A stretch of 64,000 bases of DNA from Elainellaceae cyanobacterium (GTDB lineage: Bacteria > Cyanobacteriota > Cyanobacteriia > CAZCXK01). Location: assembly GCA_051117335.1 (NCBI GenBank), contig JBNPEB010000009.1, positions 138,058-202,057 of the forward strand. Direction: 5' to 3'. Shown here in pieces: positions 161 through 12,577 of this stretch. Position numbers and translations under genes: made by a program. Numbering within the stretch: position 1 is the stretch's first letter; each line of letters opens with the position of its first letter. The notes beneath the pieces were generated by a model. The model ran no database searches, was not told the origin of the DNA, and saw only the letters and a list, made by a program, of their open reading frames with translations.

Positions 161-274
161 GCTGGAGATTTATCAAAAATGGTAACGTAAAGTCAACGCC
201 TTCACTATGCCCGATAACTTCTGCGATAGTGAGGGGGTGTGGGTTTTATATTTAATTGTGACTATGGAAGAGCA

Positions 275-3200
275 ATGTCGTTGGTTCTGCGGATTCAGGT
301 ATTGGGCGAGCTCTTTATCACCTATGGCGATCGCCCATTAGCAGGCATCACAACAGCGCGATCGCAAGCCTTGCTAGCGTATCTACTTTTACACCGCCAT
401 ACTCCCCAACCGCGCCAGCGAATTGCCTTTGATTTATGGAGAGATTCGGTAGATGCCCAAGCTCGCTCAAACCTCCGCAAAGAGTTAAGCTATCTACGCC
501 GTGATTTGCCAGACGCCAACTCGTTTCTATTGGCCGAGACAAAGACGCTGCAATGGTCACCAACAGCTCCATTCATGCTTGATGTGCTTGACTTTGAGAA
601 CGCGGTCAACGCAGCAGAGCAAACAACTGATCTCAACCAGGCGCGATCGCTCCTTGAACGGGCAGTGCAGCTCTATCAGGGGGATCTATTGCCAAGCTGT
701 GAAGACGAGTGGATTGTCCCTGAACGAGAACGGCTGCGGCAGATGAGAGGCCGAACAGTCGAGCAATTGATTGACGTGCTGAAAACCCAGCAAGACTATC
801 GGACGGCGATCGGCTATGCCCAGCAACTATTGCGAATCGACTCTCTTAATGAATCAACCTACGCATCACTGATGCAGCTACATAGCCTGAGTGGCGATCG
901 CGCGAGTGCGCTTCAGGTTTACTACCAGTGTATGGCCACACTCCGCGACGAGTTAGGCATTGATCCCAGTTCGACAACCCGTGATCTTTACCAACGCATC
1001 TTAAGTGAAGATGAGCCGTCGGAAGAGTCTTCTATCATCTCGGTCTCCCCTAGATCTACTTCCTCTGCTCCCTATCATGATTGGGGAGACGCAATCGATG
1101 TTTCTGTCTTCTACGGGTGTGACACTGAGCGATCGATATTACACCAGTGGATTGTCCATAATGGCTGTCGGCTTGTTTTACTGTTGGGCATCGGTGGAAT
1201 CGGTAAGACGGCCTTGGCAGTTAAACTGGCGCAAGACGTGCAGGCAGAATTTGAGTGTGTGATTTGGCGATCGCTACGAAACGCGCCTCCCCTCGAAACG
1301 CTGCTGGCAGACCTCGTGCTCTTCCTCTCAAATCAGCAAGACACAACCGCAGATGTCGAGCGGTTCATCCATTGGCTGCGGATGCGGCGCTGTTTAGTGG
1401 TTTTAGATAACCTTGAAACCATCTTCCAAGCGGGCGATCGCGCCGGACAGTATCGCCCAAATTACGAAGCCTATGGTGAATTATTCAGAGCACTGGGCGA
1501 GTTACAGCACCAGAGCTGCGTGATCCTCACCAGCCGCGAAAAACCCGCTGAAATTGCAACCTTGGAAGGCGCAGCAGCCGTTCGTACGCTTCAGTTGAGC
1601 GGTTCATTAGACACGGCCATGGCATTGATTGAGTCAAGGAATTTATTTGGTTCTGAAGCAGATAAACAACTACTCGCAAGGCAGTATGGCTGCAACCCTC
1701 TAGCCCTCAAGATTGTAGCGAGCTCGATTCAAGATTTGTTTGATGGCGATATTGATCAGTTTTTGCAGCAAAACGCCATCTTCTTTAGCGGCACTCGGCA
1801 GTTGCTAGAGGAGCAGTTTGAGCGACTCTCAGCCTTAGAGCAAACCATCATGATTTGGTTGGCGATTAATCGAGAATGGACAGCGATCGCCGAGCTAGCA
1901 GACGACATCCTCTCCCCCGTTTCACGCGCCAGTTTATTGGAAGCACTGCAATCTTTAAGTTGGCGAAGTCTGATTGAGAAGCGATCGGGCTACTATACTC
2001 AACAGCCTGTGGTGATGGAATATGTGACCCATTGCCTGGTAGAGCAGATTACAGATGAACTGCTCACCAAACAATTAAATCGCTTCAACCAATATGCCTT
2101 GATTAAAACAACGGCCAACGACTACGTACGCGAGAGCCAAACTCGATTAATTCTGGCAGAAGTCGCTGGCAAGCTTCGTCATGCAATCGGTGATTCCGTT
2201 CGACTGGAACAGCAGCTTTGGGCAATTCTGGCGGTGCTTCATGCGGAAGCGTCTGCACGCTCCGATTATGCCGTCGGTAATCTGCTCAACCTTTGCTGCT
2301 ATTTGGAGATGAATTTAACAGGGTATGATTTTTCCAACTTAAAGATTCGCCATGCCTATCTCCGGAAAGCAAACTTGCATCATGTCAACTTGCAGAATTC
2401 AGATCTAACTCACTCCACGTTTTCTCAGATGCTTGGAGGGGTTTTGGCTGTCGCATTCAGTCCAAGTGGTCAGCTCTTAGCGACTGGAGATAATCGAGGT
2501 CAAGTGCAGGTGTGGCGAGTAGCAGACGGACAGCTTCTGTTAACCCTCGCCGATATTCCAACCAACATCTATTCTGTGGTTTGGAGTCCTGATGGGGAAA
2601 TCCTTGCGAGTGGAAGCGGCGATCATACGATTAAACTTTGGCCTGTTTCAACAGGCCAATGTCTCAAAACCCTACAGGGACATACCAACTGGATTTTGTC
2701 GTTAGCGTGGAGTCCTGATGGAAAGATCTTGGCGAGTGGTAGTCAGGATTCAACCGTAAGATACTGGGATACGTCTACGGGACAGTGCCTGAAACGCTTA
2801 AATCATGCAGGTGCAGCTTGGTGTGTTGCCTGGAGTCCAGATAGCCAAATCCTCGCCAGCGGAGGAACTGGAGGGACGATCAATCTTTGGGATACATCGG
2901 GTAGACCCTATTTAGAGAGTTTCTCAGGTCATCGTGATGTCGTTTGGGCGCTTGATTGGCATCCAGAGGGTCAAATTCTTGCGAGTAGTAGCTCCGATCA
3001 AAGCATCAAACTTTGGGATATTTCGCGTCTGAGCACACCGCGCAACTCTACGAAAGAGCGCTTGAGCAAAGAGTGCTTAAGAACCCTGAATGGTCATAGT
3101 AACTGGGTCTTGTCTGTTGCCTGGACACCCGATGGGCAATTCCTCGTGAGTGGTAGTGCCGATCACACCATCAGACTGTGGGATAAGCAGGATGGTCACT

Positions 3201-4435
3201 GTTTGAAAACCCTGCAAGGGCATAGTAATTGGGTGTGGTCGGTTGCATGCAGCCGTTTATCAAAGAAAGCCGCTTCAAATGACACAGCATCTCAAAAGTC
3301 ACTTGGATTGATCCTTGCCAGTGGGGCTGATGATGAAGCGGTAAAATTTTGGGATCTGCAAACAGGTCAATGCTTAAAAACATTGCAGGGATATCGAGAT
3401 TATGCCTGGTCTATCTCATGGCATCCAAAGGGGCAAATGCTTGCGAGTGGTGGAGCCAGCCAGGTTGTGCGGATTTGGGATACCCACACGGGGCAGTGCA
3501 TTCGAACGCTAGAGGGGCATGATGACTGGGTCTATGCTGTTGCCTACAGTCCAACCTATGAGGAATTCTCAGACGAATTTGATTCCTTACTTGCTAGTGG
3601 TTCCCGCAACTATACGGCGATAGTATGGACGGTGCCAATCTCGGAAACAGGCCAAGAGCACGGGACAGAACCGCCCAAAAGCGAGTGTTGGAAAACGATT
3701 AAAGGATATCAAAATGTGATCTGGTGTGTGGCTTGGAATCCCAATCGACCTCTGCTTGCCGTTGGTAGCATGGACGGTGCGATCCGGTTTTGGGCAACCG
3801 ACACTGGACAGTGTATTCAGACACTGGACGAGCATCGGGGTTGGGTCATGGATATAGACTGGAGCACAGATGGACACATCCTTGCAAGTAGCAGTCAAGA
3901 TAAAACCGTCAAACTCTGGAACAGTCAGACAGGACAATGTCTCAACACCTTAGAGGGGCACGAGCTGGATATCTGGGCTGTTGCTTGGAATCCACACCAG
4001 GCATTAGTTGCAAGTGGTTCATTTGATAAAACGGTGAAACTCTGGAACCCTGATAGCGGTGACTGCCTGCAAACTTTATGCGGACATGCTTCTGGAGTTC
4101 TCTCGATCGCCTGGAGTCCAGACGGCAACACTCTGGCCAGTGGTAGTTCTGACAATACGATTCGACTTTGGAGTGTGGAAACAGGAAGATGTCTCAGAAC
4201 CCTTGAGGGGCACCATAATTGGGTGATGTCTGTGTCTTTCGCTTCAACGGGTGATGTTTTGGCAAGCAGCAGTCAGGATGAAACGATTCGACTCTGGGAC
4301 TGGAAGACAGGTCAGTGTTTGAAGGTGCTGAGAGCCACTCGCCCGTATGAAGGCATGAACATTACCGGCGTCACGGGGTTAACTGAGGCTCAAAAATCGA
4401 CGCTCAGGGCATTAGGGGCGATCGAAGTCAGTTAG
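275..4435 (+). CDS. STAND-type signalling NTPase: N-terminal SARP/BTAD DNA-binding domain, central NB-ARC/AAA ATPase, C-terminal WD40 beta-propeller repeats (AfsR-like)
   Basis: ORF 239-4435; ATG at 275 (MSLVLRIQVLGEL) preceded by GGAAGAG; SARP-like N-terminus; Walker A GIGGIGKT (nt 1189-1212); Walker B CLVVLDNLE; about 14 WD40 repeats (GHxNWVxSVAWSPDGxxLASGSxDxTIKLWD) from nt ~2440 to 4300. Confidence 0.85.
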   Translation: MSLVLRIQVLGELFITYGDRPLAGITTARSQALLAYLLLHRHTPQPRQRIAFDLWRDSVDAQARSNLRKELSYLRRDLPDANSFLLAETKTLQWSPTAPFMLDVLDFENAVNAAEQTTDLNQARSLLERAVQLYQGDLLPSCEDEWIVPERERLRQMRGRTVEQLIDVLKTQQDYRTAIGYAQQLLRIDSLNESTYASLMQLHSLSGDRASALQVYYQCMATLRDELGIDPSSTTRDLYQRILSEDEPSEESSIISVSPRSTSSAPYHDWGDAIDVSVFYGCDTERSILHQWIVHNGCRLVLLLGIGGIGKTALAVKLAQDVQAEFECVIWRSLRNAPPLETLLADLVLFLSNQQDTTADVERFIHWLRMRRCLVVLDNLETIFQAGDRAGQYRPNYEAYGELFRALGELQHQSCVILTSREKPAEIATLEGAAAVRTLQLSGSLDTAMALIESRNLFGSEADKQLLARQYGCNPLALKIVASSIQDLFDGDIDQFLQQNAIFFSGTRQLLEEQFERLSALEQTIMIWLAINREWTAIAELADDILSPVSRASLLEALQSLSWRSLIEKRSGYYTQQPVVMEYVTHCLVEQITDELLTKQLNRFNQYALIKTTANDYVRESQTRLILAEVAGKLRHAIGDSVRLEQQLWAILAVLHAEASARSDYAVGNLLNLCCYLEMNLTGYDFSNLKIRHAYLRKANLHHVNLQNSDLTHSTFSQMLGGVLAVAFSPSGQLLATGDNRGQVQVWRVADGQLLLTLADIPTNIYSVVWSPDGEILASGSGDHTIKLWPVSTGQCLKTLQGHTNWILSLAWSPDGKILASGSQDSTVRYWDTSTGQCLKRLNHAGAAWCVAWSPDSQILASGGTGGTINLWDTSGRPYLESFSGHRDVVWALDWHPEGQILASSSSDQSIKLWDISRLSTPRNSTKERLSKECLRTLNGHSNWVLSVAWTPDGQFLVSGSADHTIRLWDKQDGHCLKTLQGHSNWVWSVACSRLSKKAASNDTASQKSLGLILASGADDEAVKFWDLQTGQCLKTLQGYRDYAWSISWHPKGQMLASGGASQVVRIWDTHTGQCIRTLEGHDDWVYAVAYSPTYEEFSDEFDSLLASGSRNYTAIVWTVPISETGQEHGTEPPKSECWKTIKGYQNVIWCVAWNPNRPLLAVGSMDGAIRFWATDTGQCIQTLDEHRGWVMDIDWSTDGHILASSSQDKTVKLWNSQTGQCLNTLEGHELDIWAVAWNPHQALVASGSFDKTVKLWNPDSGDCLQTLCGHASGVLSIAWSPDGNTLASGSSDNTIRLWSVETGRCLRTLEGHHNWVMSVSFASTGDVLASSSQDETIRLWDWKTGQCLKVLRATRPYEGMNITGVTGLTEAQKSTLRALGAIEVS

Positions 4436-5146
4436 CTTGATGGTATTTCTTAATAAATCCTGCTATTCAAGTAATCTAGCTTTTTCGCCTTTTCCTAACC
4501 TTAGTCAATCAAGAGTTGACGCCTTGGGAGCGCTTTGGGAGCGCTTTGGGATCACGTGGCTAGTTAGGCTAATACAAATTCTAGAAAGTTAGCTGTAGGG
4601 CAAAGCGTCTCCTGCCAATCAAATTGAGTTGGCTAATTATAGCTTCAGTCTCCTTATTCGTTAATCTAATATGACCCTACGGCTCAGGTTTGTGAGGTGA
4701 AGCTCAAATTAAATCTAACCGAGGATTTTATGGACTTTTATTTGATTGATAAATGACTCATTTTAAGCTGTCAAAATTGATCTAAAATCCCAAATAAAAA
4801 GGCTTATTAATTAATTTATAACAGCAAAACTGCCCGCCAAATTAAGGTTTGACGGGGAATTTGGCATGTGAATATTCGAGGAAAACTTGGCTTTTTTCAA
4901 ATAGATAAATCATAGGTTTTCATGTCAGAGAGTTCTCAAAAAAATTTCGAATCTTCTCGATTTCTTCTCGATCTATTTCTAATCTGATAATCAAGAATCA
5001 ATCAAATACAAATTGATGTCTATTCTTGGGATAAATCAGATGAAAGATTTCTGAAAGATAATCCAGACTCAATTTAGAGAATGGATAGTTTCAAATCTTT
5101 TAGCTCCCAATATTAGGTATCAGTTCATCATCACTGGAGGAAAATC

Positions 5147-5314
5147 ATGATTACGAAATTCTCGAACAACTCTGCGACAGGTGATTTAGGCTCCATGCCG
5201 AATCGTAACTTAATGGAGAAATTCTCTCAAGATTGTACAGCCCGTCCAAAATTAGTTGCGCAGTGGGAACGCTTTGATAACCGATTGGTGTGTCGCTGGA
5301 CCTTACCGAACTAA
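5147..5314 (+). CDS. Small ORF (55 aa), hypothetical; below the ORF-track length cut-off
   Basis: ATG at 5147 with GGAGG 8 nt upstream; translation MITKFSNNSATGDLGSMPNRNLMEKFSQDCTARPKLVAQWERFDNRLVCRWTLPN; stop TAA 5312-5314; 98 nt upstream of the next gene. Confidence 0.3.
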   Translation: MITKFSNNSATGDLGSMPNRNLMEKFSQDCTARPKLVAQWERFDNRLVCRWTLPN

Positions 5315-5412
5315 CAGCAAATCGTTAAAGATCAGCAGGCTAATATCAAAATCCCGGAAAATAGTGCACTTTGAATTGCACTTGCATACGCGCTAATTTG
5401 GAGAATTGTACG

Positions 5413-5715
5413 ATGACCACACAATATAAACGATTTCTTTCATTGGGGATTGGCTTTGGAGTGCTAGCATTCGCCTCTCAAACTCAAATACCCACGATGA
5501 TGGCGGATAACTCGGCTCAGCTCGTTTTGAATGGGTTGACGATGAATGGACTGTCAATGAATGGACTGTCAATGAATGGACAGGACGTTAATCGGTCTAC
5601 CAGCCTTCGTCCTGATTGGATTAACCCTGCCACAACTGAAGCAAGGCTAAACCATCAAATGGTTGAGTCTGTCAGTTTGAATGGTGGGCAGCTCACCTTT
5701 CAGTTATCCGACTAG
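5413..5715 (+). CDS. Small secreted protein with signal peptide and tandem NGL(T/S)M pentapeptide repeats
   Basis: ATG at 5413 (MTTQYKRFLSLGIGFGVLAFA); 15-bp tandem DNA repeat aatggactgtcaatg at 5530-5589 encodes NGLTMNGLSMNGLSMNG; ends at TAG 5713-5715, in frame with the downstream ORF. Confidence 0.45.
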   Translation: MTTQYKRFLSLGIGFGVLAFASQTQIPTMMADNSAQLVLNGLTMNGLSMNGLSMNGQDVNRSTSLRPDWINPATTEARLNHQMVESVSLNGGQLTFQLSD

Positions 5716-5724
5716 TACGGTGAG

Positions 5725-6597
5725 GTGTGGGTGATGAACCGCTGTTGTTGGAACCTTATCTTTGCATTCGCTGGCGGAACAGCGCTTGGCTTGACTGCTC
5801 TGCTCGCAGGCTGGTTCAAAGGAACGGAAGTCACCAGCGACCTAACCAGGGGCGATCGCCCTAGTTCACAATCCCTCAAATCATCATCTGTTTTGCAAGG
5901 AGAGGCACTCATCGGAGCAACACTCACTAGCTTTGATGATCAGGGGCGATCGCTCACTCTCAAAATCGACGAGGTACACCCTGACCCCGAAGACATCGAC
6001 CGGGAGATCTATCTTTACACCGTTCTCTATCGGGGTAACGATAAGCAGTGGTACAACCTGTGTCAGCCTGATCGAGACGGTGTTGCACAAGCCATTCCCC
6101 TAACTGGACGGTGGGATGAGACAGGCGCGCACATCGATGATGGTAGCATTACGTTTGCCTGTACGAACGGTGCCCTCGCCAAGTGCGTGCGGTGGGGCTA
6201 CAAGCCCTGGGAAACGGTCAATGGCGAGTCACTTCGCACCTATCACCAGGCATGTACTCGCATGGTGCGAGCTGACTATTGCGGTAACGGCATTGGGCAT
6301 ACCCAGGATGGGACGTCGATTGATGTGTATGACCGACTCGGCATTCAGCTCCCTGTTGATGATGACGGCATGACCTTTGAAGCAGCATGGGATGCGGATG
6401 GTGCAGTATTTCTAAATCGCACGCGCTTTCCGGCGATCGCCCAACTCCGCGAGGAATGTCCTGAAAAATTAGCACAGATGCTTTACTTGCAGGAATCAGA
6501 CTCTCTAGACCCAGACTCTCTAGACATAGACTTTCTATCATCTATTCCCGACGCACTGCTATTCAACGACTCCTTCGTTCAAACAGGCACATTCTAA
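5725..6597 (+). CDS. ADYC-motif domain protein with N-terminal hydrophobic anchor
   Basis: Literal ADYCGNG motif (RMVRADYCGNGIGHTQDG); hydrophobic N-terminus LIFAFAGGTALGLTALLAGWF; GTG 5725 or ATG 5734 start; C-terminal 15-bp tandem repeat (DSLDPDSLD) at ~6497-6540. Confidence 0.55.
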   Translation: MWVMNRCCWNLIFAFAGGTALGLTALLAGWFKGTEVTSDLTRGDRPSSQSLKSSSVLQGEALIGATLTSFDDQGRSLTLKIDEVHPDPEDIDREIYLYTVLYRGNDKQWYNLCQPDRDGVAQAIPLTGRWDETGAHIDDGSITFACTNGALAKCVRWGYKPWETVNGESLRTYHQACTRMVRADYCGNGIGHTQDGTSIDVYDRLGIQLPVDDDGMTFEAAWDADGAVFLNRTRFPAIAQLREECPEKLAQMLYLQESDSLDPDSLDIDFLSSIPDALLFNDSFVQTGTF

Positions 6598-6750
6598 GTT
6601 TTAGATCTCTGCATCCTCCTCAAACATGAGCAACGAATTCGCCTGTTGCTGCCTGGTCTTTCATATCCAAATTTATTTTGGCTGATGCGGCGCTCCTTCG
6701 TTAGCACGCGCGGCCAGCAGTTAGCAGTATTAAAAATTGGAGGTTATCTT

Positions 6751-8238
6751 ATGGCTCGTCAACGATGGGCATCACGGCAAATCTTTGTGTTGGCTGCAAT
6801 CGGTTCAGCGGTCGGCTTGGGGAACGTGTGGCGATTTCCCTACTTAGCTGGCAAATATGGCGGAGGCGCTTTTCTAGTTCCCTATCTATTGGCATTCATT
6901 CTACTGGGCGTGCCGCTGTTGATTCTGGAAATCGCGATTGGTCAAAAAATGCAGCAGGGAGCCATTCACTCATTTCGCAAGCTGCATCCTGCCTTTGGCG
7001 GCATTGGATTAATGGCGATCGCCTCTTGCCTCTTCGTGGGATCTTACTATGCCGTTGTCATCGCCTGGTGTTTGATTTACCTGGTCAAGTCCTTTAGCAT
7101 TCCTTGGGCAGGAGGAGCAGAAGTATACTTCTTTCAAGATATCTTGCAGATTAACGAACATGTACAGCTTTTCGATCGCGTGAATCCTCCTATCCTTTTG
7201 GCTCTTGCCGCCGTCTGGATTGCGATTTACTTCTGCATCTGGAAAGGAACCCAAAGTGTTAGCAAAGTTGTTTTCTATAGTGTCCCGATTCCGGTCGTCA
7301 TTCTTGGCATTTTGCTAGTTCGAGCTGTTACATTGCCCGGTTTCTGGCAAGGGTGGCAGCTTTATTTGACACCGATCTGGAGTGTATTGGTAGCTCCTGA
7401 TGTCTGGACTGCCGCCTGCACTCAGATTTTCTTCACTCTGTCGGTCGGCTTTGGCGCCATGCTCACCTACGGCAGCTACAAAGACGAACAGGAAGATATC
7501 GTCAAAGATGCTTGGATAGCGGCTCTCATTAACAGTGGCACTAGTTTGTTTGCAGGCTTCGTAGTGTTTGCTGTGTTGGGACATATGGCTTGGATCGCCG
7601 ACACGCCTGTGTCAGACCTGGCTGCATCGGGTCCCGGATTGGCGTTTGTGGTCTTTCCCGAAGCGCTTAGCCTCATGCCTCTATCAGGACTGTTTAGCGC
7701 TCTGTTTTTCTTGATGCTGGTATCTCTGGGGATTGATAGCGCTTTTTCGATTGTGGAGCCAATCATCGCAGTTGTGCGCGATCGCCATCCCCAACTCTCA
7801 ATCTCCCATGTAGCAGCCTGGATTTGTCTACTACTGTTTGGCATCGGAGTCCTGTTTACAACCCGGTCTGGTCTTTACTTCCTCGACATTGTGGATCACT
7901 TTGTTACCCATTACGATATAGCGCTTGTGGGTATTGGGCAGGCTCTCCTAGCAGGCTGGGTGGTTGGAGCTGAATCGTTGCGCCGCTATATCAATCAAAT
8001 CAGCGATTGGACGGTTGGACGTTGGTGGAACATCTCAGTTCGCTGGATTGTGCCAGGTACTCTGACGATCTTGCTTGCGACTCAGCTTTCGACCGATTTG
8101 AAAACACCCTATGAAAACTATCCAGCCTGGGCATTGGCGATCGGGTGGGCAACGGTTGTGATTCCTATCCTGCTGTTTGGCTGGATGCTTGCACGCCGAC
8201 AGAAGCGCGAGTTGTCTGCGCCCCTCCACGAGGATTAA
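6751..8238 (+). CDS. Sodium-dependent transporter, neurotransmitter:sodium symporter (NSS/SNF) family
   Basis: ATG 6751 preceded by GGAGG; hallmark motif GNVWRFPYLAGKYGGGAFLVPY near the N-terminus; multi-TM throughout. Confidence 0.85.
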   Translation: MARQRWASRQIFVLAAIGSAVGLGNVWRFPYLAGKYGGGAFLVPYLLAFILLGVPLLILEIAIGQKMQQGAIHSFRKLHPAFGGIGLMAIASCLFVGSYYAVVIAWCLIYLVKSFSIPWAGGAEVYFFQDILQINEHVQLFDRVNPPILLALAAVWIAIYFCIWKGTQSVSKVVFYSVPIPVVILGILLVRAVTLPGFWQGWQLYLTPIWSVLVAPDVWTAACTQIFFTLSVGFGAMLTYGSYKDEQEDIVKDAWIAALINSGTSLFAGFVVFAVLGHMAWIADTPVSDLAASGPGLAFVVFPEALSLMPLSGLFSALFFLMLVSLGIDSAFSIVEPIIAVVRDRHPQLSISHVAAWICLLLFGIGVLFTTRSGLYFLDIVDHFVTHYDIALVGIGQALLAGWVVGAESLRRYINQISDWTVGRWWNISVRWIVPGTLTILLATQLSTDLKTPYENYPAWALAIGWATVVIPILLFGWMLARRQKRELSAPLHED

Positions 8239-8343
8239 ATATCTCTCTACTTCGGCTCTATTTCGGCTCTATCTCAAAACACGTCAGAGTGCATCGTACC
8301 CATAACCATTATTTACCTACATTCACCTAAGGAGAACTCAATC

Positions 8344-9660
8344 ATGGCAACGGTTACTATTCCTAGCGGACAACTTGAAGAGACACCGATCACCCTGGCT
8401 GATCCAGGTGACTCCTTGATTGTTGAAGGGCAAGTGATTGCAAATCCGGCAGTCATTGTCCAAGGAGATTTGAATCATATCTTTGTTCAGCAAGGTGGAT
8501 CACTTGAAAGTGAAAATGCCACCGTTCAGATTGAGGGCACCAATGCCTCGGTCGTCAACAATGGGGTGATTGATGGTGCTGTCATTGATGTTGTGAATGG
8601 AGGCCAAGCCTCAGCCGTCATTTTGAATTCGGGCACCATTATTACTCGGCAACGAGCCATCAACATGGGAGGGGCATCAACGGCTGTCGTGAACAACGGC
8701 AGGATTGTCCTTCGCGATGATCCCAGTGATGGCACTATCTATTCAGATGCAACAGCCAAGAGCTTTTCCATCGAGAATCAGGCGAGCGGATTGATTGATG
8801 TTGGGCAAGGCAACAACGGTGATGCTATTTCTTTAGAACTGGGTGAGATTGTGGACGGTTCGGTCGCCAACCAAGGGGAGATCTATGGGCGGGGAGGAGC
8901 CAACTTACCCCATGCGGCTGCGATCCGCCTCTACAAAGGAGCCAATATCGAGGGAACCTCAACGTTCAACGGCAGCATTTCAAACACAGGTCTGTTGTCG
9001 GCTGAGACCAATGCGGCTGTTTTGATTGACGAAGGAGTTTTTCTCAGCGGTGCGATAACCAACAATGGAGTGATTGAGGGTGGCGTGTACAAAGCCAATG
9101 GAGCCAAGCTTGCCATCGATGGCCGTCAAGCCGAAGACAGCCTGACTGTCGTCAACAATGGCACCATCAATGGCGATGTGCTGTTGACCGGGGGCGATGA
9201 TGTCTACCGCAGCCGTACCGGAAACATTGATGGCATGGTTGTTGGTGGGGGCGGCGATGACCTGCTCATTGGCTGCACCCGTGGTGAAACTCTCAAGGCC
9301 GGTAGCGGCAATGATCGCGTCAAAGCAGGCAGTGGGGATGACGAGATTTTCGGGCAGCGAGGGGATGACGTTATTGATGCCGGTCGTGGAGATGATGTCA
9401 TCGATGCAGGCAAGGGCAACAATGTGGTCTACGGCCGACAAGGCGCGGATGTGTTCCGCTTGTCAAAAGGCAAGGGAGTCACCGTAATCGAGGACTTCAA
9501 GATCAGACAGGGTGACGTGCTTGATGTGAAGCGAGGTGCAATCAACCGCGTTGAGTTTTCTCAGGTCGGGCGAGATACCCTTGTCAGCATTGGTAGGGAT
9601 GACCTCGCGATTTTGAGTGGAGTGAATGCAAATAGCCTTTCGGATAATGTGCTGGTTTAG
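8344..9660 (+). CDS. Secreted calcium-binding protein with RTX (hemolysin-type) nonapeptide repeats
   Basis: ATG 8344 with AAGGAGA RBS; N-terminal beta-helix-like G/N/V-rich repeats; C-terminal GGxGxDxL-type repeats (GGGGDDLLIG, GSGNDRVKAGSGDDEIFGQRGDDVIDAGRGDDVIDAGKGNN). Confidence 0.75.
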   Translation: MATVTIPSGQLEETPITLADPGDSLIVEGQVIANPAVIVQGDLNHIFVQQGGSLESENATVQIEGTNASVVNNGVIDGAVIDVVNGGQASAVILNSGTIITRQRAINMGGASTAVVNNGRIVLRDDPSDGTIYSDATAKSFSIENQASGLIDVGQGNNGDAISLELGEIVDGSVANQGEIYGRGGANLPHAAAIRLYKGANIEGTSTFNGSISNTGLLSAETNAAVLIDEGVFLSGAITNNGVIEGGVYKANGAKLAIDGRQAEDSLTVVNNGTINGDVLLTGGDDVYRSRTGNIDGMVVGGGGDDLLIGCTRGETLKAGSGNDRVKAGSGDDEIFGQRGDDVIDAGRGDDVIDAGKGNNVVYGRQGADVFRLSKGKGVTVIEDFKIRQGDVLDVKRGAINRVEFSQVGRDTLVSIGRDDLAILSGVNANSLSDNVLV

Positions 9661-9737: not shown

Positions 9738-10352
9738 ATGAAAGTAAACAGACTATGGTCTGGACTGATCGTGCTGACCGTACTCGTGGGCAGTGGCTGC
9801 ACCCCTGGAGGGTCTGTATCAGTTGCTGGATCTAATCGTTCAGACCAATCCACAGCAAACGAACAGTCAGCTACAACCATTACCAGTTCTGATGGAATTA
9901 CCCAACTCACTATCCCTGCAGATTGGCACGACACATCAAACTCACTCACGGCTGAAAACTGGACTCTGTATGTGGGGACACGCGACAGTCGCGTTAGCGT
10001 CGCCGTTAAAACGATGTCCAAAGCCGAGGCTCCAGAAATTTCTGCGGATCTTCACGCCGGTGCGGCTTTGAATGCAGGTAAGGCTCCGTTTCAAGATGCA
10101 GAAGTGATTGAGCAAGACGTGCCTACTACGATCAACGGTTACTCTGCCGTAATGCACCAGGTTCGCGGCACGATGATGGACTATCCCATGGTAGCTGTCA
10201 CCTATTCCATTGAAACCCCTGAGCACTATCACAGTGCGGCAGTCATGATGTTGGCTAATGAGTTTGAGCGGCGGTGGCCTCAAGTAGAGCAGGTTTTGCA
10301 GTCGTTTGACGTGGTGGAATCCACTGAAGCCTCCGCAGAGCTATCTCCGTAG
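9738..10352 (+). CDS. Putative lipoprotein, hypothetical
   Basis: ATG 9738 with CAGGAGA RBS; signal peptide followed by lipobox-like LVGSGC (MKVNRLWSGLIVLTVLVGSGCTPGG). Confidence 0.55.
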   Translation: MKVNRLWSGLIVLTVLVGSGCTPGGSVSVAGSNRSDQSTANEQSATTITSSDGITQLTIPADWHDTSNSLTAENWTLYVGTRDSRVSVAVKTMSKAEAPEISADLHAGAALNAGKAPFQDAEVIEQDVPTTINGYSAVMHQVRGTMMDYPMVAVTYSIETPEHYHSAAVMMLANEFERRWPQVEQVLQSFDVVESTEASAELSP

Positions 10353-10570: not shown

Positions 10571-12577
10571 ATGGCACTCGAAGATCTCAGAGCAATTGAC
10601 TTTGATGACATTGTTTCCGTTACTGAAGCTGAAAACTTTGCCGAAAACATCACGAATGGTTCATTTCGTACTGCCGAAGACCTAGGCGATATCACCGATT
10701 TGACACGAGGGGTTTCTGGCACGATAGAAGCAAGGGCTGCAATCGGAAACGCTAGCGACTTTATTGATACCTACAAGTTCACCGTCGATGAGCCCACCCA
10801 ATTCAACGCGATTCTAGACACCCTCGATCCTCAGCGTCAGGAACAGGTGGTCCTGCGCCTGTTCAAAGACTTTAATGGGGATGGGGTTTTTAATTTGGAC
10901 GGCCCCACGAGATTCTCTGATTTGCTACAAGGCACAGCCTTTCGAGGTCCCGAAGATACTATTGCGTTTGATCGGCTCGATCCAGGGGAATATCTTCTAC
11001 AGGTCTCCAGCCAGGTTGTAAACGATCCGATCGACTATCAAATCAAATTCGAAGCTCCGGAACTGGATACCGCCCAGCTTAACCTTGACCTGAGAAATAT
11101 CATTGCTGAAGATGATTTGAGCAGTGGACAATCGCCCATTCGATTTGAAGCTGAAATTGCAGGACAGGTGTTTGAGCAACGATTTGAGCAGGATTTTCAA
11201 AGGACTATTTTACCTGTTCAAGTTGACCCGAACGAGCGGGCGTTTGATATCAAACTTCGAGCCTTCAGGCTAAATGCCAACGGGACTGAAAGTCGGCTTG
11301 ATTTGGATAAACGTCGGGGAGACCTGGAGTTTGATGCCACGTTTGATACGTTGGGTGAAAAGTTGTTCAAGATAGGAGCGGGGATTAACGTCAATGAAAA
11401 TCAGGGATTTGTACAGATTGCCCGTGGTGATGAACGCGGCAATGAAGTAAGAGACGGATTTCTCAGCTTGCGCGTGTCCTATGACACCACTGCCGATCTC
11501 GATAATCCAGGGAACGATACTCCTGGCAACGATGATCCAGGTAACGATGCGCCTCAAATCCCGGACCCAGACAGTGTTTTGATTATCGGGACCGATCAGG
11601 ATGATGTCCTTGATGGGAATGAGCGAGGGAACCGCATGTTTGGCCTCCAGGGTAATGACACTCTAAATGGCAACGGCGGCAACGATATCCTCCAAGGGGC
11701 AGGCAATCCTGAAATTGCCACGACTGTTGGTGAAGGAGAAATCGATCGCCTCAATGGTGGTGCAGGGCGAGATACCTTTGTCCTCCACACCAACCGGGGC
11801 ATGACCGTGCTCTACGACGAGGGCGATCGCCGCAATCCTGGCAAACAAGACTTCGCTATCATCGAAGACTTCAACAAAAATCAGGACACCATCGAGTTGG
11901 CAGGCTCCCGCGAGGAGTACTTCATTAGCCGCTCCAACGTACGAAAGATTGCTGATGGTCGCGCCATCTTCCGCGATACCGATAATGATGGTCGCCTCCG
12001 AAAAGGGCGTGATGAGCTGATTGCGGTCGTTGAAGGAGTCAACAATCTCTCTCTAAATGACCTAGAGTTTATCGACATTCCGGTCACGATCGGCACCAAT
12101 CAGGCTGAACGACTTCAGGGCACAGGTCAAGATGGCATTCTCAATGGTCGGGGTAAGCGTGACATTATCAGTGCTAAAGGGGGAAATGATATCGTCCTGG
12201 GCGGTAACGGCAATGATGTGTTGAATGGCGGCAGCGGCGATGACATCCTCGATGGTGGCAAGGGTCGTGACCAATATCGCGGACAGGGTGGCAGCGATGT
12301 CTTTGTGATTCGAGAAGGTCAGGGGCGCGATCGCATTCTCGACTTCAAAGATGGCGTGGATGTCATCGGTCTTGCCAAAGGGTTGGAGTTTGAAGACCTC
12401 AGCTTCAATCAGCAGGGCAACAACACCCTGATTCGCGTCGAAGACGAAAAGCTCGCCATTGTCAAAGGCGTTGCGGTTGATCAACTGAGCGCTGAAGACT
12501 TTGTCTCCGTTGACTACACCCGCTTTGAAGGAATGCGAGTGCCCGTCGTGTTGGGTGTTGAACCAACGGTGGTATAG
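10571..12577 (+). CDS. Large secreted calcium-binding protein with RTX-type repeats and PGND tandem repeats
   Basis: ATG 10571 with AAAGGAGA RBS; GTDQDDVLDGNERGNRMFGLQGNDTLNGNGGNDILQG and GGNGNDVLNGGSGDDILDGGKGRD beta-roll motifs; PGNDTPGNDDPGNDAP from a 15-bp DNA repeat near 11506-11553. Confidence 0.75.
   Translation: MALEDLRAIDFDDIVSVTEAENFAENITNGSFRTAEDLGDITDLTRGVSGTIEARAAIGNASDFIDTYKFTVDEPTQFNAILDTLDPQRQEQVVLRLFKDFNGDGVFNLDGPTRFSDLLQGTAFRGPEDTIAFDRLDPGEYLLQVSSQVVNDPIDYQIKFEAPELDTAQLNLDLRNIIAEDDLSSGQSPIRFEAEIAGQVFEQRFEQDFQRTILPVQVDPNERAFDIKLRAFRLNANGTESRLDLDKRRGDLEFDATFDTLGEKLFKIGAGINVNENQGFVQIARGDERGNEVRDGFLSLRVSYDTTADLDNPGNDTPGNDDPGNDAPQIPDPDSVLIIGTDQDDVLDGNERGNRMFGLQGNDTLNGNGGNDILQGAGNPEIATTVGEGEIDRLNGGAGRDTFVLHTNRGMTVLYDEGDRRNPGKQDFAIIEDFNKNQDTIELAGSREEYFISRSNVRKIADGRAIFRDTDNDGRLRKGRDELIAVVEGVNNLSLNDLEFIDIPVTIGTNQAERLQGTGQDGILNGRGKRDIISAKGGNDIVLGGNGNDVLNGGSGDDILDGGKGRDQYRGQGGSDVFVIREGQGRDRILDFKDGVDVIGLAKGLEFEDLSFNQQGNNTLIRVEDEKLAIVKGVAVDQLSAEDFVSVDYTRFEGMRVPVVLGVEPTVV

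Follow-up and report, generated by a model that had tools for sequence, protein, structure and literature searches.

We investigated the window, by which we mean the whole stretch of 64,000 nucleotides (nt) of an Elainellaceae cyanobacterium (assembly GCA_051117335.1, contig JBNPEB010000009.1, positions 138,058 to 202,057 of the forward strand), with a focus on two adjacent genes near its start: ORF2, which encodes a small exported repeat protein, and the gene of an ADYC-domain protein. These two genes are an exported, co-conserved and sometimes fused pair, and only these two form the core of the locus. The initial annotation of this DNA had proposed a four-gene module, to which a small open reading frame (ORF), here ORF1, and a sodium:neurotransmitter-type symporter (NSS) also belonged; the link between ORF2 and the ADYC gene stands, through co-conservation and fusion, and the module as a whole fails because the NSS and ORF1 are not co-conserved across ADYC loci. 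The annotated ORF2 and ADYC proteins of the source genome, which is metagenome-assembled, are 100% identical to those encoded in the window. The features, with window positions and product lengths in amino acids (aa), are as follows.

239-4435, plus strand: STAND NTPase gene; 1398 aa, with a SARP-type N-terminus/BTAD, NB-ARC/NACHT and WD40.
4436-5146, no strand: AT-rich intergenic region of 711 bp, non-coding; presumed promoter/regulatory DNA for the genes downstream.
4519-4559, plus strand: tandem repeat array of three 11-nt units, GCGCTTTGGGA, found by repeat search; candidate protein-binding array.
5147-5314, plus strand: ORF1; 55 aa, lineage-specific small ORF.
5413-5715, plus strand: ORF2; 100 aa, exported partner with pentapeptide-type repeats.
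5734 (ATG) or 5725 (GTG)-6597, plus strand: ADYC-domain protein gene; 287 aa, PF20032.
6751 (ATG, GGAGG upstream)-8238, plus strand: NSS transporter gene; 495 aa, PF00209.

Conservation of the pair was evaluated in a set of 80 ADYC loci fetched from one-genome-per-species contigs, in which 44 cyanobacterial and 36 Myxococcota loci serve as denominators; the two closest relatives, L081 (83% identical) and L082 (65% identical), were added from assemblies. A hidden Markov model (HMM) of the partner family, built from small ORFs with NGxxx repeats and searched against about half a megabase of six-frame ORFs, revealed a same-strand ORF directly upstream of the ADYC gene in 35 of the 44 cyanobacterial loci, and matched nothing else in the loci except one tandem duplicate. 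A regular expression for the NGxxx repeat placed it on the same strand, no more than 1.5 kb upstream of ADYC, in most cyanobacterial loci. By tblastn, ORF2 itself matched 14 of the 80 loci, and a k-mer homologue search with ORF2 returned only itself and its counterpart in L081. The gap between partner and ADYC gene has a median of 79 nt, measures 9-34 nt in the window's clade and extends up to 400 nt elsewhere. Gene order and strand are maintained across four phyla, and the pair is present as well in L039, a metagenome-assembled genome of Bdellovibrionales, and in L076, whose record is titled as a 'Hoeflea sp.' chromosome and whose pair is diverged. A further record, L008, bears the title 'Rhizobium sp.' but resembles Chamaesiphon in its ADYC pair and flanks, and is probably mis-binned.

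The two genes are also found as one. L066, a locus from Polyangia, encodes in one ORF a signal of lipoprotein type, nine copies of the NGVQL repeat and the ADYC domain, and Pfam detects both Pentapeptide (34.4 bits) and ADYC (197 bits) in this one chain. The ADYC proteins of Myxococcia have no repeats and carry a conserved N-terminal extension of ~100 residues ending V-K-A-L-R-L-E-G-G-R-L-V-A, which hhalign aligns to the C-terminal motif of the partner (P 2.3e-4, 24 columns). Because of the fusion in L066 and the EGG motif in the Myxococcia ADYC proteins, we infer that ORF2 and ADYC act as one unit. We weighed this against the possibility that they are exported proteins acting independently, whose adjacency comes from shared regulation or from a cell-surface gene island. 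Neighborhoods rich in exported RTX, PEP-CTERM and FG-GAP proteins would suit such an island, as would the PEP-CTERM gene that lies between or beside the pair in four loci, and ORF2 alone yields no confident predicted fold. A one-polypeptide fusion in Polyangia, an EGG motif fused in Myxococcia, and an order and strand preserved across four phyla speak, however, for joint action, and we consider independent action unlikely.

The PEP-CTERM genes form a pattern of their own. An exported PEP-CTERM protein of ~250 aa is encoded directly upstream of ADYC at L010:4901-5650, L023:4827-5657, L030:1621-2385 and L062:1462-2223; in L030 and L062 it stands between partner and ADYC. These are Coleofasciculaceae/Phormidiaceae loci, and in L023 positions 4017-4754 encode another PEP-CTERM protein.

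In the window, ORF2 and the ADYC gene share one reading frame across a single TAG (5713-5715), and the same holds in L081 and L002. Together with the fused form in L066, the shared frame could be taken to mean that one ancestral gene was split by this in-frame stop, leaving either a pseudogene or a read-through gene. We reject this broken-gene reading, to which we give almost no credence, because the ADYC gene is equipped, past the stop, with a Shine-Dalgarno sequence, a start codon and a hydrophobic N-terminal signal of its own, because the frames differ in L001 and L082, and because both halves are under purifying selection (ratio of nonsynonymous to synonymous substitution rates, dN/dS, of 0.26 for ORF2 and 0.27 for ADYC against L081, the latter an ordinary value). 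The gaps of up to 400 nt in other loci also speak against it.

We characterized the partner protein from its translation and its family. ORF2 begins with a hydrophobic N-terminus (signal peptide), continues as LVLNG-LTMNG-LSMNG-LSMNG and ends in ...SVSLNGGQLTFQLSD, with a C-terminal motif, 'SVSLNGGQLTF', of the EGGQL type; its description in the initial annotation as a signal-peptide protein with NGL(T/S)M tandem repeats is thus accurate (NGLTM-NGLSM-NGLSM-NG). The repeats are four NGxxΦ pentapeptide-type units (about one helical turn), that is, tandem five-residue units with a central hydrophobic residue. Across the family, the hallmarks are a signal peptide (often ending ANA), 3-15 units of x-x-Φ-N-G, and a C-terminal L-x-V-E-G-G-Q-L-V. 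The five-residue period is maintained over this range of 3-15 units in 32 homologous loci, and ORF2 differs from its L081 counterpart by the gain or loss of exactly one repeat (a 15-nt indel). A longer homologue, that of L008, passes the Pfam Pentapeptide model (PF00805, an 8-repeat model with a cut-off of 20.2) with 54.9 bits; the window's four-repeat member remains below threshold, with no match at E<=1. Because longer homologues match the Pentapeptide family, we read the ORF2 repeats as structural, pentapeptide-type units and not as repeated core peptides. The C-terminal EGGQL motif is covered by no Pfam or NCBIfam model.

The ADYC protein matches PF20032 with E 4e-60 and 203.4 bits (cut-off 27) over profile positions 1-175 of 176, and contains the ADYCGNG motif literally, as originally noted. 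It comprises an N-terminal hydrophobic signal/anchor, a low-complexity linker, and a globular domain with six conserved cysteines; a lipobox-like motif is present in about a third of the homologues. In an alignment of 71 homologous sequences, A180-D181-Y182-C183 is invariant, as are C110, C143, C151 and C183, with C174 and C242 conserved at >=90%; six such cysteines would fit three disulfides formed outside the cytoplasm. Further invariant positions are D84, D87, W106, W127, W159, H171, Q172, R176, D181, Y182, H189, D200, E216, W219 and R231. These conserved Trp, Asp, His and Arg positions suggest a ligand-binding, glycan-binding or catalytic site, with no activity assignable.

Built from the alignment of 71 homologues, the AlphaFold2 model of the ADYC protein reaches a mean predicted local distance difference test score (pLDDT) of 82.5, exceeds 90 over most of residues 70-250, and shows a beta-rich N-terminal half and an alpha/beta C-terminal half. 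Foldseek searches with this model gave no significant relative in the PDB (best E 0.17) or among viral models (best E 0.1), the ADYC profile had no significant match among PDB sequences (best E 0.46), and the domain was not found in viral contigs. Full-text literature searches returned no relevant paper on the ADYC domain or PF20032. Several genomes have at least two ADYC loci: L001/L016, L005/L036, L006/L007, L024/L027 and L050/L060.

We then consider the two outer genes of the proposed module. The NSS is what it had been called, a sodium:neurotransmitter-type symporter, matching PF00209 (SNF) with E 8.2e-136 and 454 bits (cut-off 27) and NCBIfam NF037979 (Na_transp) with 67 bits (cut-off 50). 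In a Pfam survey of 164 neighbors of homologous ADYC loci (89 upstream, 75 downstream), SNF appeared once among the 75 downstream neighbors, in L081 only, and the downstream set is heterogeneous, with no recurrent transporter of any family. By tblastn, the NSS and ORF1 were each found in 0 of the 80 ADYC loci, and L082 retains the WD40 gene upstream together with the pair while lacking both NSS and ORF1. The co-occurrence analysis that the initial annotation had recommended gave a divided result, with a partner gene in 35 of 44 cyanobacterial loci, and NSS and ORF1 not co-conserved beyond L081; judged by the refuting condition that the annotation itself had set, the four-gene module fails. NSS and ORF1 are local, lineage-specific neighbors that accompany the pair only in L081.

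ORF1, correctly described as a 55-aa Cys/Trp-containing ORF with a strong ribosome-binding site, contains two Cys and two Trp and has GGAGG 6 nt upstream of its ATG. It is probably a real, coding small gene of this lineage, outside the conserved core, because it retains 85.6% nucleotide identity to L081 over 153 nt with no indels, amid flanking spacers that have diverged to 55% and 66% identity with indels, because its dN/dS against L081 is 0.24 (from only 27 substitutions), and because it shows no RNA-structure signal (z +1.1 relative to shuffles). Homologues were not forthcoming: a k-mer search of the protein collection gave no match, a metagenome scan gave one spurious match, to a high-GC contig and in an overlapping frame there, and an exhaustive phmmer search of 1.8 billion representatives gave four low-complexity or eukaryotic repeat matches plus P0125. 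The last was considered as a relative of ORF1 and set aside; at 119 aa and in an unrelated locus, it was counted as a weak motif resemblance. P0125 (L083:5001-5360) has two copies of LxAxW-x4-G(K/R)LVCRW, which resemble the ORF1 C-terminus, and its gene sits between TetR and Crp-type regulator genes; the motif may mark a small unannotated motif family.

These data bear on the functional suggestion made for the module, a secreted-peptide or signaling-plus-uptake unit, in which ORF1 and/or ORF2 would be secreted peptide precursors, ADYC would mature them, and the NSS would re-import the product. The layout is compatible with it: the four genes lie on one strand, as annotated, separated by short spacers in which no terminator-like site occurs, their order is preserved in L081, and ORF2 is both exported and repetitive. 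Nothing supports a precursor-peptide role for ORF1, however, since no maturase, peptidase or exporter gene lies nearby and no homologue was found beyond L081, and no peptidase, maturase or ABC exporter of the kind expected in a RiPP or peptide-pheromone cluster recurs among the window genes or the 164 neighbors. Known substrates of NSS transporters are amino acids and amines rather than peptides. Further counts against the suggestion are the NSS in 0 of 80 loci, SNF as 1 of 75 downstream neighbors, the lack of ORF1 homologues elsewhere, and the nature of the repeats, which in longer homologues score as members of the structural Pentapeptide family and in L066 share one chain with ADYC. We regard a peptide unit as very improbable.

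Downstream of the NSS, three genes follow at 8344-9660, 9738-10352 and 10571-12577; two encode RTX (HemolysinCabind) proteins and the remaining one a probable lipoprotein of 204 aa. Synteny with L081 extends to the first RTX gene and the gene of the 204-aa protein, and about seven other cyanobacterial loci have RTX proteins in the vicinity of ADYC.

We examined the neighborhood upstream of the pair. The product of 239-4435 matches BTAD with E 5.8e-28 and 98.5 bits (cut-off 22.1), with further matches to NACHT and NB-ARC, and WD40 repeats are visible in its translation; its N-terminal 110 residues gave no Trans_reg_C match at E<=1e-3 and resemble a SARP winged helix-turn-helix (wHTH) by eye only. 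Pfam finds NB-ARC/WD40 proteins in 8-9 of the 89 upstream neighbors. An HMM of the NTPase module places this STAND family upstream of the pair in 11 of the 44 cyanobacterial loci and in the window, and downstream in 0, with modules 50-60% identical between the window and the 11 loci. This 12-versus-0 asymmetry and the single copy of the STAND gene in the 64-kb window are the sole internal controls. In L036, L082 and the window, the STAND protein has the BTAD N-terminus and its gene lies upstream, in the same direction as the pair. Six further loci have a short N-terminus and a gene transcribed divergently from the pair's side; this short N-terminus has a weak HTH_3/XRE match in L015 and L021, a faint one in L041, and none in L001 and L024.

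Two side observations concern this interval in other loci. A non-coding block of ~115 nt, ~90% conserved in three genera (L015:5245-5360, L023:3780-3895 and L021:3464-3580) and rich in AGTCAGT-like repeats, lies next to the point where the divergent HTH-NB-ARC-WD40 genes start, and may serve as a regulatory element or as a 5' untranslated region. In L082, a copper amine oxidase and a GNAT acetyltransferase are encoded on the opposite strand between the STAND gene and the pair (L082:4561-7461), where the window has AT-rich non-coding DNA only.

The long AT-rich gap at 4436-5146 is as initially described. In 300-nt windows its GC content is 0.31-0.38, with a minimum of 0.30-0.31, against 0.49 for the whole window, and 4551-5250 is the sole part of the 64 kb with GC below 0.36 at this window length. 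The gap holds no gene remnant, no mobile-element similarity and no similarity to other ADYC loci; an Rfam scan of 4200-8600 found no family (one sub-threshold snoRNA chance match), promoter and terminator scans gave site numbers not above shuffles, and both spacers fold as RNA no better than shuffles. The 11-nt array at 4519-4559 is made of perfect to near-perfect units, and an 11/11 tandem match was obtained in 0 of 300 shuffles. An 11-nt period is the typical geometry of SARP binding sites.

The GCGCTTTGGGA array lies ~85 nt past the stop of the SARP-type STAND gene, and a fourth copy of the same type, 84% identical, is found within ORF1 at 5258-5276. A weaker tandem pair of 11-mers, TCTTCTCGAT(T/C), lies at 4952-4973, ~175 nt upstream of ORF1, and is statistically weak alone; it is followed after 9 nt by TAATCT, a possible -10 box.

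STAND-type ATPases also accompany ADYC in Myxococcota, where all-against-all ORF clustering of the high-GC loci was noisy (spurious ORFs), and only long, Pfam-checked ORFs were used. A protein of ~1300 aa with the architecture zf-HC2-like-Pkinase-nSTAND1-transmembrane helix-FGE-sulfatase (FGS) is encoded near ADYC in 30 of the 36 loci, a divergent sigma-70-region-4 protein in 25, and a TPR-CHAT protease in 17. The nSTAND1 protein has one predicted transmembrane helix (~783-803 in L044) and a C-terminal FGS domain; provided that its kinase and ATPase parts face the cytoplasm, the FGS domain beyond the helix would be extracytoplasmic, like ADYC. At L044:6762-11727, L068:6733-11724 and 28 further Myxococcota loci, the sigma gene is divergent from the kinase-nSTAND1-FGS gene, with ADYC immediately beside. 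These cassettes come in two fixed gene orders, one with TPR-CHAT. The kinase-nSTAND1-FGS protein corresponds to the 'NTPase-FGS' conflict system of Kaur et al. 2021 (PMC8195603), and the searched passages of that paper do not name or describe ADYC. ECF sigma factors encoded beside Ser/Thr kinases are known to undergo activation by phosphorylation (PMC8999054).

This company raises the alternative of a secreted toxin (ADYC) with an exported immunity protein or chaperone (ORF2), or of another inter-bacterial or anti-predator conflict effector under STAND/CHAT systems. In its favor, the Myxococcota neighbors, kinase-nSTAND1-FGS proteins and CHAT proteases, belong to conflict systems according to Kaur et al. 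2021 (PMC8195603), several genomes hold multiple ADYC loci, and the number of repeats in the partner ranges between 3 and 15. The PADLOC models matched none of ORF1, ORF2, ADYC and NSS, however, and within the STAND protein only the WD40 region, to a HEAT-ARM model. Moreover, viral contigs contain no ADYC copy, purifying selection on ADYC is of an ordinary kind, and there is no secretion-system domain, known toxin domain or toxin-like fold match. A toxin or conflict role is, in our judgment, quite unlikely.

Our preferred explanation is a two-protein envelope unit. The functional unit would be the two-gene operon of ORF2 and the ADYC gene, with both products exported, ORF2 by its signal peptide and ADYC by its N-terminal signal/anchor. 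The pentapeptide repeats of ORF2 would form a short beta-helix, variable in length, and docking of the C-terminal EGGQL segment of ORF2 onto the globular domain of ADYC would place at the cell envelope a globular head, stabilized by disulfides, that bears this short helix; two chains would thereby reproduce what Polyangia, and partly Myxococcia, encode in one. Transcription would start in the AT-rich region under the control of the adjacent SARP/BTAD-NB-ARC-WD40 regulator, and the pair would be an envelope-located output or partner of the STAND-based signaling or conflict systems of multicellular bacteria. Taken jointly, a two-protein envelope unit with EGGQL docking on ADYC, STAND-controlled transcription, and a ligand, glycan or catalytic site seems to us slightly better than an even bet.

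Several observations weigh against this explanation. The partner was undetected in 9 of the 44 cyanobacterial loci; at least two of these nine (L026, L042) have almost no upstream sequence, and L036 and L037 carry a more divergent exported repeat protein at the partner position. The hhalign match between the Myxococcia extension and the partner is short (24 columns) and has 44% probability. Structure prediction of ORF2 alone, from a two-sequence alignment, was uninformative (pLDDT 47.7). The window ADYC protein reads LLAGW at 5806-5814 where L081 reads LFTGC, and so is without the lipobox Cys of its closest relative; it may be anchored or processed differently. Regarding control, tandem 11-nt repeats reach significance in the window but in none of the other STAND-linked loci, most cyanobacterial ADYC loci have no STAND gene within 6 kb, and the STAND family is multi-copy in such genomes, the 11 of 44 being a raw count and not one normalized to a genome-wide background. 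For these three reasons, we advance regulation of the pair by the STAND gene via the AT-rich region as a hypothesis.

A bolder version of the envelope-unit proposal is that the pair constitutes an unrecognized extracytoplasmic arm (secreted effector, ligand or co-sensor) of STAND-NTPase-controlled systems in multicellular bacteria, in the form of a new-fold, disulfide-locked envelope protein that bears a beta-helical probe of variable length. The cytoplasmic STAND switches would be the HTH- or SARP-NB-ARC-WD40 proteins in cyanobacteria, and in Myxococcota the sigma factor together with the kinase-nSTAND1 protein with its periplasmic FGS domain. We consider this possible but doubtful.

The genes have been individually catalogued already, as an ADYC domain-containing protein (the name given by NCBI), a hypothetical protein and an NSS transporter. 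In searchable papers and libraries we found no prior description of the partner family, of its cross-phylum coupling to ADYC with a natural fusion, of the absence of fold relatives, or of the STAND neighborhood. In cyanobacteria and myxobacteria, STAND NTPases have been proposed to be related to the switches of eukaryotic apoptosis and immunity, and few of their inputs and outputs have been identified; an exported pair that recurs beside STAND genes across phyla is a concrete candidate output or partner. The pair offers a first functional handle on Pfam's uncharacterized ADYC family, and defines a second, unannotated family of small exported partners with NG-type pentapeptide repeats and an EGGQL tail. 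The tempting reading of a secreted peptide plus transporter is removed as unsupported. The two-gene core is a solid, testable lead, and the four-gene module is not a real unit.

Compared with known systems, the components range from ordinary to distinctive. The NSS is an ordinary full-length member of the NSS/SNF family of LeuT-like Na+ symporters, with GLGNVWRFPY in its N-terminal region and nothing unusual. Against Pfam PF20032, an uncharacterized family with a sequence definition only, the window protein is full-length and high-scoring, with the ADYC motif and all conserved cysteines. In relation to the STAND signaling and conflict systems of Kaur et al. 2021 (PMC8195603), Myxococcota ADYC loci carry the S/T kinase-nSTAND1-FGS protein and CHAT, and NB-ARC-WD40 STAND genes stand by the pair in the window and in 11 cyanobacterial loci. 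Unlike the NTPase-FGS system, the window STAND protein has no FGE-sulfatase domain, and the window holds no FGS, CHAT or EAD domain; the putative DNA-binding (SARP/BTAD) N-terminus points to a transcriptional output rather than a death effector. The product of 239-4435 resembles SARP/AfsR-type regulators in its BTAD, its NB-ARC/NACHT ATPase and its repeat sensor, with tandem 11-nt repeats downstream of its gene, but its sensor is WD40 rather than TPR, its host is a cyanobacterium, and the Pfam wHTH model does not match. Finally, ORF2 shares the five-residue period and central hydrophobic residue of pentapeptide-repeat proteins (PF00805; Rfr-type right-handed quadrilateral beta-helix), whereas the partner family is set apart by its export, a fixed N-G at repeat positions +1/+2, and its conserved EGGQL end.

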